From the IMG/VR virus record IMGVR_UViG_2851938318_000001: a stretch of DNA of 64,000 nucleotides; one strand, written 5' to 3'. Positions 27,324 to 28,746 of this stretch are shown here, in pieces; positions within the stretch are counted from its first letter, which is position 1, and each line of letters opens with the position of its first letter. A program made the position numbers and the translations under genes. This DNA comes from a virus (lineage: Duplodnaviria > Heunggongvirae > Uroviricota > Caudoviricetes). Under the pieces are notes generated by a model. That model did no database searches and had not been told where the DNA came from. It was given only the letters and a program-made list of their open reading frames with translations.

Positions 27324-27410
27324 ATTGTCTATCACAGCGTTGAGCGGTCTGGTTTATGTTAGCGGAGTCTTAATCGAGTTGATTAAAAGGCCAAACCGCT
27401 CAACGCTGTG
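27324..27410. other. Long perfect hairpin (16-bp arms) next to the tRNA cluster
   Basis: cacagcgttgagcggt ... accgctcaacgctgtg inverted repeat. Confidence 0.4.
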
Positions 27411-27412
27411 TC

Positions 27413-27499
27413 TGGCGGAGAGTAATGGAATCGAACCATCATCGCTTGCGCAATGGGACGGTTTTCAAGACCGCTTGAGCACCATGCTCCCTACTCTCC
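27413..27499 (-). tRNA. tRNA-Ser (anticodon TGA), class II with long variable arm
   Basis: Hand-folded: acceptor GGAGAGT/ACTCTCC, anticodon loop CTTGAAA, T-arm GGTTCGATTCC, encoded CCA. Confidence 0.7.
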
Positions 27500-27723
27500 G
27501 GCCGTTGTGGTGGCCGGTACTGAATCTCCGGCATACGGTGCAGCCAATTAGGACTACGGACGATCACCGCTCGCGAAAGGGAAGATTTGCGGCCGCATTT
27601 CCCTAACATCCAAGAAAGCTATCGCATCAGTCTGCGAATCCACCACAACGGTAAGATCACTACCTTTCGACCAGTCATTGTGCACATGAACGACGATTAA
27701 CCGTAATGATCTTATCGTTGTAT

Positions 27724-27799
27724 TGGTGCCGGTTAGCGGACTCGAACCGCTGACATCCTGCTTACAAGGCAGGCGCTCTACCAACTGAGCTAAACCGGC
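27724..27799 (-). tRNA. tRNA-Thr (anticodon TGT)
   Basis: Hand-folded 76-nt cloverleaf: acceptor GCCGGTT/AACCGGC, D-arm GCTCAGTTGGTAGAGC, anticodon loop CTTGTAA, T-loop TTCGAGT, CCA. Confidence 0.8.
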
Positions 27800-27803
27800 A
27801 ATT

Positions 27804-27890
27804 TGGTGGGGAGTGATGGAGTCGAACCACCCGAGTCGCAATGACAGTAGATTTACAGTCTACCCCGCTGCCCCTACGGACTAACTCCCC
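27804..27890 (-). tRNA. tRNA-Tyr (anticodon GTA), long variable arm
   Basis: Acceptor GGGGAGT/ACTCCCC, anticodon loop CTGTAAA, T-arm GGTTCGACTCC, CCA. Confidence 0.7.
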
Positions 27891-27895
27891 TAAAT

Positions 27896-27970
27896 TGGCG
27901 ATGGTGGGTGGATTCGAACCACCGACCAGTTGGTTAACAGCCAACTGCTCTACCGCTGAGCTACACCATC
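27896..27970 (-). tRNA. tRNA-Asn (anticodon GTT)
   Basis: Acceptor GATGGTG/CACCATC, D-arm GCTCAGCGGTAGAGC, anticodon loop CTGTTAA, T-arm GGTGGTTCGAATCCACC, CCA. Confidence 0.75.
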
Positions 27971-28746
27971 AATTCAGCACTGCCAGTATTTATTACTCAA
28001 CAGTGCCAATCGCGGCGGTGTTAGTTTCTGCCAGGAAACGCACCGCTACTTGCACTTTCCGTTAGTGCCAGACGTTTTCGACTTCGCTCAATAGAAGGCA
28101 AAATCTTTAAGTAGATGATGTTTCTGAGGACAGCACCTACTTTGTAATTTATACAATGTGATGTATGGAATCATTTGTTGTGAAAACAGGCACCAATGGC
28201 AACAGTGGTTAAACCTACACAACAATCCTGTCTTCACAACGTTGAGGCCACTACTCCGATTGAATGTTTGCCCAACATGTTACATATCAACGCTCGCCGG
28301 TATCTCTGTGAATAGAACCTTAGAATTGATACAAATGTAATGGCCTCAACGTTGTGTGCTAGCTAACCATACCAGCCGGGCTACGTCGCCGCTTTTTAAC
28401 CCAGTATAAACGACATAATTGAACAAAATGACGTAACAGGATGGGCGGTCAGTGGCTAAGAATCCGGGAGTCATATGGAGTTGAAAATATACCAACCGCC
28501 CATTCTGTTACTTCATCGGAGGGAACATTCATGTTCCCTCCTGCGTTCTGCAATCACACTCGCTCAGTGTGTCCCATTTCGGTAACGAGGCTGGAAACTG
28601 ACCTCGCTGGTGTTTGGCTTATTAGGCTACTGCCAGATAGACTTCTTCGTTTGCACTTGTATTTAAGTTCAAACAGTCGCGTCTCAACGAAAACAAAGTC
28701 ATCTTATACATAAAAGATAAGTAAGTAAATACTTATCATTGTATTT

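Follow-up and report, generated by a model that had tools for sequence, protein, structure and literature searches.

We analysed a 64,000-nucleotide (nt) stretch of DNA from a tailed virus (IMG/VR record IMGVR_UViG_2851938318_000001; "the window" means this whole stretch), concentrating on a minus-strand transfer RNA (tRNA) cluster that an earlier reading of the letters alone, the original prediction, had described as bracketed by inverted repeats. Positions 27239-28746 (minus strand) are probably a non-coding RNA operon of an SSU5-like phage-plasmid, a judgement that we make jointly for the tRNAs, the processing hairpins and the scaffold RNA of which it would consist. The operon would be transcribed in the order structured leader, hairpin I4, spacer, tRNA-Asn, tRNA-Tyr, tRNA-Thr, hairpin I1, 150-nt scaffold RNA, tRNA-Ser, hairpin I3 and intrinsic terminator. 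The hairpins and the scaffold RNA belong to two separate families, both of which appear to be unannotated and undescribed; the literature consulted, including that on P1, SSU5, the Pas small RNA preprint and the Shiga toxin (Stx) phage pR' region, contained no description of either.

The three window hairpins I1, I3 and I4 form one family of ~20-bp RNA hairpins closed by CACARC/GYUGUG, each with a stem of ~18-24 bp and a variable apical part. The 5' arm of I1 begins at the CCA of tRNA-Thr and its 3' arm continues into helix P1 of the scaffold RNA; its arms match those of I4 at 16 of 20 positions. The folding energy as minus-strand RNA is -40.1 kcal/mol for I3 (z -9.9), -48.1 kcal/mol for I4 (z -7.2) and -32.6 kcal/mol for I1 (z -4.8); none of 200 shuffles of I3 or of I4 was as stable. 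The original prediction had seen I3 and I4 as inverted repeats with a common core, and in essence this holds. The hairpin it placed at 27324-27410 has a perfect 16-bp core, although its true start is 27333, 9 nt further in; the second inverted pair, placed at 28226-28355, is real; and the exact 12-mer CACARCGTTGAG occurs at four sites in the 64 kb, all of them within the I3 and I4 arms. With up to two mismatches allowed, the 12-mer has 21 sites against 10.4 expected, a number that none of 100 shuffles reached.

A lack of conservation in relatives had been set beforehand as the observation that would speak against the repeats, and conservation was found. I3 is kept in Enterobacter, pHCM2, Escherichia coli and Klebsiella relatives, where it always abuts the last tRNA and shows the compensatory change GAGC/GCTC to GAAC/GTTC. 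I4 is kept at the same position in seven divergent phage-plasmids, among which it covaries by G-C/A-U and C-G/U-G/U-A changes (alignment columns 433-434), with column 439 as further evidence of pairing at the RNA level. The U-G intermediates are valid only on the minus strand, since read from the plus strand they would be mismatches of C with A. Members with compensatory changes were found in pHCM2, pMT1, Klebsiella plasmids, P7/D6, the lambda late leader and the Qin prophage. A total of 133 unique family hairpins have the CACARC/GYUGUG closure in common and differ in their stems. Among 86 that lie just upstream of scaffold RNAs, non-Watson-Crick positions read in the tRNA/scaffold sense are G.U 194 times versus A.C 82 times, in a parse that gave both mismatch types equal treatment. 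By these sequence patterns the family hairpins are RNA-level structures on the tRNA strand.

A role for such hairpins is suggested by the family member in the E. coli K-12 prophage Qin (locus L223, 2674-2757), which lies between ydfC and dicF, and by the member in phage lambda (LC730321, 44788-44863), which immediately follows tR' in the late leader, in the interval from Q to S. One identical base geometry is common to the hairpins of Qin, lambda and L104: 6 bp, a mismatch, 2 bp, a mismatch and at least 10 bp. According to a preprint that cites Faubladier 1990, a 190-nt DicF species is lost in a ribonuclease III (RNase III) mutant, primer extension identified its 5' end as an RNase III cut, and the 53-nt DicF form is made by RNase E (10.1101/2023.04.14.536235). 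With the 190 nt measured from the 3' end annotated for DicF, that cut would fall at about position 2746 of L223, inside the 3' arm (2739-2757) and ~12 nt from the base of the hairpin. Since the Qin hairpin coincides with the RNase III-dependent DicF end, we read the window hairpins, by homology, as most likely RNase III processing punctuation between units. The proposal in the original prediction that the repeats are processing structures is thus the best-supported one, through the RNA-level pairing on the tRNA strand and the Qin homologue, with the coordinate match itself calculated rather than observed. The dicF site resembles the window hairpins in its closing 6-mers (CAUAAC/GUUGUG) and in separating units of a prophage polycistronic RNA; its 3' arm is close to family variant L166 (~16 of 19 positions by hand count). 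It differs from them in that published work does not place the Qin hairpin in a repeated family and in that I3 and I4 are perfect 20-bp stems.

In each hairpin the 3' trailer of a unit is paired with the 5' leader of the unit that follows; in the proposed mechanism, RNase III would cut within the stem and so separate the units. RNase P and 3' exonucleases would then finish the tRNA ends, as we assume from the established tRNA maturation pathway. Long duplexes that flank and release mature RNAs are familiar as the RNase III stems of ribosomal RNA (rRNA) operons and of phage T7 early transcripts. The window hairpins would likewise serve release from a polycistronic transcript and likewise have stems of about two helical turns, whereas the rRNA and T7 stems, which have no sequence similarity to them, pair the two flanks of one RNA instead of linking the trailer of a unit n to the leader of its successor, n+1.

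The 220-odd nt between tRNA-Ser and tRNA-Thr (27500-27723) had been described as having no assignable fold, which is wrong: this spacer consists of hairpin I1 and a structured RNA of ~150 nt, the scaffold RNA or module A, whose fold is backed by covariation. In the scaffold family, the closing helix P1 has the sequence GUGGUG/CACCAC, extended to GUUGUGGUG/CACCACAAC in enterobacterial phages, and covaries (for example, GAUCUG/CAGAUC in L045). Hairpin P2, 3 nt after P1, has a 5-bp stem, four of whose five pairs covary, and a GRCUGA loop; hairpin P5 has a 5-bp stem, with the family variants GCAGG/CCUGC, GUCGG/CCGAC and GCUGG/CCAGC, and a UCAGY-containing loop, and has no linker to P1. The family consensus is 5'-(G)UUGUGGUG-AAU-GCGCA(GGCUGA)UGCGC-[insert]-GCCGG(AGAUCAGCA)CCGGC-CACCACAA(C)-3'. 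Homologues of the window element that are 73-75% identical to it were found in the Klebsiella Jedunavirus BUCT_49532, where the element lies between tail genes without tRNAs, and in Salmonella pSAN1-1735; these and L044 carry the window's insert family on the consensus scaffold, with that identity extending over the element. In an RNAalifold analysis of four homologues, 9 of 39 pairs were compensatory.

More extensive support comes from 50 diverse sequences with the insert masked, in which P1, P2, P5 and a helix between the P2 and P5 loops are 95.7% paired (a figure inflated by the manner of sampling, as set out below) versus 27-51% in slid controls. In the same set 13 of the 24 pairs changed on both sides, and none of 500 shuffles was as high. 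The loop pairing (GCUGA/UCAGC) has a variable position that is G-C 115 times, G.U 15 times and never A.C, and the P2 loop has an A opposite a U in all six cases in which the A occurs. The window copy is one of these, its P2 loop ACUGA being complementary to the P5 loop UCAGU, the A-U version of the consensus G-C pair. These patterns suggest that the two loops may form a kissing interaction, and the scaffold topology, in which a closing helix encloses two hairpins whose loops would interact and no linker precedes the 3' strand, may be called tRNA-like by analogy. A hammerhead-like CUGAUG string in P2 was also considered and set aside: the core residue A9 is missing, the string is part of a hairpin that covaries, and Rfam gave no ribozyme match.

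Scanning IMG/VR with the 3' end of the element brought a large family to light, with at least 145 unique instances. The 145 that were parsed have inserts of 4-160 nt (median 74), and their 140 unique inserts fall into ~98 unrelated k-mer clusters. Six identical 40-nt upstream flanks carry inserts of different clusters. One insert type, found in L066 (4600-4646), L071 and L125, matches the Rfam small subunit (SSU) rRNA clan (E 1.1e-7) as a complete helix with all pairs kept, and other insert clusters have their own compensatory changes. Coding potential of the scaffold was ruled out, the lengths being spread evenly over the three modulo-3 classes and most members having stops in all three frames. 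For 31 of the 145 instances there are tRNAs at a distance of up to 1 kb; these number 65, and every one is on the scaffold strand. Rfam 15 had no match in the spacer 27500-27723 even at E<=10, and at 12 other scaffold loci it returned tRNA matches only.

The scaffold is widespread. An exact 24-mer of it, GTGGTGAATGCGCAGGCTGATGCG, is present in 55 species-representative genomes, mostly of Enterobacterales, Aeromonas and Betaproteobacteria (Janthinobacterium, Massilia, Undibacterium), plus Moraxellaceae, Marinobacterium and Lysobacterales. The few alpha- and deltaproteobacterial and Acidobacteriota matches are on short contigs or contigs of metagenome-assembled genomes, several with enterobacterial-type flanks, and may be mis-binned phage DNA. 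A 76-nt consensus matched 312 phage records, 94 of them with both halves, including HK620, an Stx2 phage, IME11, Magnus, Jedunaviruses, the P1-like phage JL22 and phages of Aeromonas, Xanthomonas and Pseudomonas. The same consensus matched 1519 of 5426 complete E. coli genomes, 816 with both halves and at up to seven places per genome; among the matches listed for E. coli, none lay under an annotation. Elsewhere the matches are unannotated or lie under coding sequence (CDS) calls named hypothetical or "plp". In JL22, where the match is in the same tRNA-proximal region as in P7 and D6, the call is "plp: lipoprotein", and it is probably spurious because the scaffold family has no reading frame.

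The genomic contexts of the scaffold are varied. In L104 it lies downstream of tRNA-Met and tRNA-Arg, in the stretch from Q to the lysis genes; in APEC O1 it follows a cI-like gene and is followed by a DicF-like terminator; other copies are upstream of the terminase small subunit gene, upstream of a glycosyltransferase moron or between tail genes. In the handful of neighbourhoods examined, no constant protein partner was found. Several further observations were made at these loci. A DicF-like small RNA or terminator (UUUGGCGGU...; a weak Rfam DicF match, E 0.12) directly follows the scaffold in several prophages (L066, 4721-4770; L221, 3650-3705). Just downstream of dicF in K-12 (L223, 2957-2985), the sequence TGTGGTGAATGCGGCTGAGCGCACGCGG resembles a decayed 5' scaffold half, and lambda has only a decayed scaffold remnant after its hairpin (L224, 420-470). 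In BUCT_49532 (L005, 2714-3295) a free-standing HNH endonuclease gene lies beside the scaffold, between tail genes, and related Jedunaviruses are without it.

From its sequence we infer that the scaffold RNA is a processed and stable display scaffold: the constant frame would make the RNA excisable and stable, and the insert would be the functional cargo or effector that it displays. It is possible, though we hold this only tentatively, that the family is a new class of phage RNA, in which a near-invariant, tRNA-shaped kissing-loop scaffold, excised by host tRNA- and rRNA-processing enzymes, displays at least 100 unrelated structured cargoes, one of them mimicking an SSU rRNA helix, that are swapped by recombination in the constant flanks and take part, as decoys, sponges or regulators, in conflicts between phage and host or between phages.

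Known phage and bacterial RNAs offer partial parallels. Tran­scripts that contain tRNA-like RNAs are known from the stable RNAs "species 1 and 2" in the phage T4 tRNA cluster, from bacterial YrlA (Y RNA-like) and from the tRNA punctuation model. The scaffold resembles T4 species 1 and 2 and YrlA in its closing helix, two hairpins with interacting loops and absence of a linker after the last hairpin, as well as in its occurrence within same-strand tRNA arrays. It differs from them in having no T- or D-loop consensus, no conserved CCA and no Rfam tRNA or YrlA match, and they have no counterpart to its hypervariable insert. The c4 antisense RNA of P1/P7 and the CI RNA of P4 are cut from longer transcripts by host tRNA-processing enzymes. 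These too are small phage-plasmid RNAs in which variable loops on a constant frame set specificity, but their locus and sequence are different and the Rfam C4 family does not match the scaffold. GOLLD and ROOL are structured phage and prophage non-coding RNAs of unknown function that often lie beside tRNA genes. Unlike the scaffold, they are several hundred nt long, with conserved cores and no hypervariable cassette (10.1101/2024.12.08.627333), and neither had an Rfam match here.

Comparison with relatives indicates that the units between the hairpins are modular. In phage Cyrano tRNA-Ser and tRNA-Thr are 8 nt apart, without the spacer and without tRNA-Tyr, which is also absent from the P1-like phages P7 and D6. 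P7 and D6 have the Ser-spacer-Thr block in common with the window at 93-99% identity, and in both, after tRNA-Ser, come the spacer's first 150 nt (99% identical), then a CACAACGTTGAG hairpin, a second module and a further hairpin before tRNA-Thr. This second module, module B (L004/L003, ~3349-3500), is a conserved non-tRNA unit between two family hairpins; it is also present in pSAN1-1735, and its 3' end UAACCGGCAC copies the 3' strand of the tRNA-Thr acceptor. In pSAN1-1735 the modules are in a different order, with an additional tRNA fragment. pHCM2 and the Enterobacter and second E. coli relatives have tRNA-Asn alone, directly followed by the terminal hairpin, and a Klebsiella relative has the order Asn-hairpin-Ser-hairpin. 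At the Yersinia pestis pMT1 locus (L055) ARAGORN finds no tRNA, and the F1 capsule operon (caf1R, caf1M, caf1A) adjoins the I4 homologue, caf1R ending at 2489, 14 nt from its start at 2503 (L055, 2489-2618); a virulence locus thus sits at the hairpin junction. These comparisons point to gain and loss of units at hairpin bases and at CCA-proximal microhomology. The hairpin bases would thus also be junctions at which recombination swaps units between phages, because they are nearly identical in sequence. Directly after I4 in the window is a further stem-loop, module C, which ends in GUUGUG/CACAAC, as does scaffold P1, is partly conserved in relatives and may be a third kind of unit sharing these ends.

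This modularity raises the question of whether the hairpins and scaffold are DNA-level mobile elements, either resembling miniature inverted-repeat transposable elements (MITEs) or palindrome-associated transposable elements (PATEs) with GTTGTG...CACAAC termini, or cassettes of a recombinase or homing endonuclease. We consider this unlikely, although close relatives differ in which units they have, with breakpoints at the 6-mers, unrelated types of phage and unrelated gene contexts have the same scaffold, the caf operon of pMT1 abuts the I4 homologue, an HNH endonuclease gene adjoins the scaffold in BUCT_49532, and the window has a tyrosine recombinase gene at a distance of 3 kb. The pairing is strand-asymmetric, as the excess of G.U over A.C positions indicates, with many G.U pairs whose invariance is confined to the tRNA sense; there is covariation in P2, in P5 and in the pairing of their loops, of which terminal repeats by themselves would have no need; and the scaffold is co-oriented with every nearby tRNA. 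Examined by the standards of MITEs and IS200-IS605 elements, the indels end in repeated 6-mers or CCA-proximal microhomology, with no adjacent transposase, though without a systematic search for empty sites; neither an associated transposase nor a target-site duplication was seen. The HNH gene is best seen as an independent insertion without a functional link to the scaffold, since phage JYSS3 has a scaffold variant without it and KpV52 has neither. Nor are the repeats integron attC sites, which have the core order R'' (RYYYAAC) ... R' (GTTRRRY): the motif order is reversed (GTTGAGC...GCTCAAC in I3) and I4 does not fit RYYYAAC. The suggestion of the original prediction that the repeats are remnants of a mobile cassette therefore survives in part, in that units are gained and lost at hairpin and CCA boundaries, but without transposase or target duplication, and with RNAs that look functional. 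Less probable still is a role of the hairpins, the scaffold or both in transcription control, as terminators, nut/boxA-type antitermination sites or a put-like antiterminator RNA. The sites do lie just downstream of promoters or terminators (tR' in lambda, Q in L104, a cI-like gene with a promoter in APEC O1), the extreme sequence conservation could reflect RNA polymerase binding, and the common 3' arm contains UGCUCUUU, which we take to be identical to the start of the rrn boxA. However, this boxA-like string, considered as a NusB-E site, is present in many 3' arms but base-paired, and it is not conserved, being replaced by unrelated sequences in other members (variants UGCGCUUCC and UGCAAUCC). 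The whole HK022 genome, the source of put RNA, which it has downstream of PL and PR, has no match to either scaffold half at <=6-7 substitutions, and the window scaffold is ~240 nt from the operon terminator with no downstream genes for read-through. A terminator role, which the original prediction had also entertained, is not borne out, there being no U tract after the hairpins and the terminator scan calling only a separate hairpin (27239-27258) near the operon end.

Two other explanations have very little probability in our estimation. The spacer and hairpins could be decaying tRNA pseudogene debris without a present function, in keeping with the resemblance of the 3' ends of module A (GUACCGGCCACCA) and module B (UAACCGGCAC) to that of tRNA-Thr (UAACCGGCACCA) and with tRNA T-arm fragments in the D6 hairpin loop, in pSAN1 and in some inserts. 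This is strongly disfavoured by the retention of an exact 24-mer in 55 species, by covariation in all helices and by insert subfamilies with their own compensatory changes. The scaffold could alternatively be a retron-like or guide-type RNA in which a partner protein would use the variable insert as its template or guide, an idea to which we accord equally slight weight. Retron non-coding RNAs have closing inverted repeats, constant hairpins and a variable middle, as the scaffold does, and its hypervariability suggests an arms race. Against this, neither a reverse transcriptase nor a constant protein neighbour was seen in pRM9131-1 or the other loci examined, the contexts vary (the Q-lysis leader, upstream of the terminase small subunit gene, beside a glycosyltransferase gene, between tail genes), inserts vary in length between 4 and 160 nt, and Rfam gave no msr match.

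Several points weigh against the operon of tRNAs, processing hairpins and scaffold RNA that we favour. RNase III cleavage of the window hairpins rests on homology, and the match at Qin on a gel estimate of "190-nt"; moreover, I3 and I4 are perfect stems, versus two internal mismatches in the Qin/lambda type, and their cleavage may differ. The scaffold sample was gathered by exact patterns with a parser that required pairing, which inflates the percentage of paired positions but not the double changes, and the loop-loop covariation rests on few independent events. The lack of a conserved RCCA 3' end makes recognition of the scaffold by RNase P a conjecture, and its excision and stability are predicted from sequence. 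The inserts are only mildly more structured than shuffles (mean z -0.69). Finally, the window scaffold is within a block that was probably acquired recently from a P1-like phage, and it may be a passenger here.

Table 1. Features of the tRNA operon and its surroundings in the window.
Feature	Coordinates	Strand	Description
Non-coding leader	28357..28746	-	~390 nt, upstream of hairpin I4; highly conserved and highly structured
Hairpin I4 ("upstream")	28235..28356	-	122 nt; 20-nt arms 28235-28254 / 28337-28356, 95% complementary
Stem-loop "module C"	28177..28240	-	64 nt, GUUGUGAAGACAGG...CCUGUUUUCACAAC; 14-nt arms, 93% complementary
tRNA-Asn (GTT)	27896..27970	-	ARAGORN; Rfam tRNA 75.5 bits; encoded CCA
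tRNA-Tyr (GTA)	27804..27890	-	ARAGORN; Rfam tRNA 39.7 bits; long variable arm; encoded CCA
tRNA-Thr (TGT)	27724..27799	-	ARAGORN; Rfam tRNA 76.5 bits; encoded CCA
Hairpin I1	27640..27726	-	Third CACAAC...GUUGUG family member (CACAACGGTAAG); 24-nt arms, 83% complementary
Scaffold RNA "module A"	27502..27651	-	~150 nt; 12-bp closing stem 27502-27513 / 27640-27651
Scaffold helix P1	27641-27650 with 27503-27512	-	Closing helix
Scaffold hairpin P2	27622-27637	-	UCGCA-GACUGA-UGCGA after joiner GAU (consensus joiner AAU)
Scaffold insert	27533-27621	-	89 nt, between P2 and P5
Scaffold hairpin P5	27513-27532	-	GCCGG-AGAUUCAGUA-CCGGC; abuts P1 3' strand without linker
tRNA-Ser (TGA)	27413..27499	-	ARAGORN; type II; Rfam tRNA-Sec 46.6 bits; encoded CCA
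Hairpin I3 ("terminal")	27333..27410	-	20-nt arms 27333-27352 / 27391-27410, 95% complementary; starts 2 nt past CCA of last tRNA
Intrinsic terminator	27239..27258	-	Terminator scan: 8-bp GC-rich stem then TTTTGTT; ends tRNA operon

The four tRNAs of the operon are genuine and ordinary, and are already annotated in RefSeq (pRM9131-1). Over the whole 64 kb, ARAGORN called four tRNAs and no more, each of them on the minus strand, in agreement with the Ser-Thr-Tyr-Asn cluster originally proposed, and the encoded CCA claimed for all four can be read at their 3' ends in the minus-strand sequence (GCCA, ACCA, ACCA and GCCA). The Rfam check suggested at the outset came out likewise, with tRNA-Thr, tRNA-Asn and tRNA-Tyr exceeding the gathering score of 29 of the tRNA model (RF00005) at 39.7-76.5 bits. 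tRNA-Ser(UGA) has a short D loop and, owing to a long variable arm, fits another model of the clan, tRNA-Sec, better than it fits the tRNA model; its tRNA-Sec score is slightly below the gathering score of 47 for tRNA-Sec. The D6 record remarks that tRNAscan-SE would not call the amino acid of its tRNA-Ser. Codon usage had also been suggested as a check: in the long open reading frames of the window, ACA accounts for 30% of Thr codons, at 19.3 per thousand, and UCA for 21% of Ser codons, at 16.0 per thousand, frequencies that are ~2-fold the usage in E. coli K-12; Asn and Tyr codon usage was unremarkable. That tRNA-Thr(UGU) and tRNA-Ser(UGA) read codons heavily used by the element fits ordinary codon supplementation.

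The leader upstream of I4 is conserved across these elements to a greater extent than is their tRNA content, with long invariant blocks common to E. coli, Salmonella, Citrobacter, Y. pestis pMT1 and Klebsiella phage-plasmids. It contains a long hairpin (28428-28516) and a second one (28518-28541), both covarying, and many G.U pairs that are invariant in the minus sense; the 790-nt region 27971-28760 folds with -269.5 kcal/mol (z -9.6). No Rfam family matched the leader at 28357-28746, where tmRNA-like (transfer-messenger RNA-like) matches were weak (E 0.06-1.6) and were taken as chance. At the other end of the operon, the terminator is bidirectional and is shared with a convergent gene (26326-27234).

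Over the 1.5 kb around the tRNA region, identity to pRM9131-1, a plasmid of E. coli RM9131, is 100%, and identity to many ~110-kb non-mobilizable plasmids and to "Escherichia phage" records such as CMS-2020a and Cyrano is 97-99.7%. To judge by the neighbouring genes, which encode a DNA ligase, a primase, a glutaredoxin, the YafO toxin and a tyrosine recombinase, the window is from an SSU5/pHCM2-type E. coli phage-plasmid. Elsewhere in it, six Rfam matches to ALIL, the frameshift pseudoknot of the IS3 family of insertion sequences (1437-1553, 2997-3113, 7956-8072, 18481-18597, 39915-40031 and 52389-52505), have the identical score of 121.5 bits, which implies six copies of one insertion sequence within 64 kb. 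A full-length match to the cspA thermoregulator 5' untranslated region at 12720-13138 (minus strand; 185.7 bits versus a gathering score of 78) shows that a cspA-type cold-shock leader is carried on the phage-plasmid.

If our interpretation is true, two RNA elements are missing from the annotation of model phages, including the lambda late leader, P7/D6, HK620 and Stx phages, and the same elements also occur on plasmids of major pathogens (pHCM2, pMT1) and in over a quarter of the complete genomes of E. coli. The hairpin family would then represent a general rule for the cutting of phage tRNA and small RNA operons, and would explain the exchange of tRNA and virulence modules at fixed junctions. 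The scaffold family would be a natural RNA-display system with hypervariable cargo, and through its inserts the role of tRNA-linked phage non-coding RNAs would become directly testable. Potentially, synthetic RNAs might also be expressed within the scaffold, as a compact frame that the host processes.

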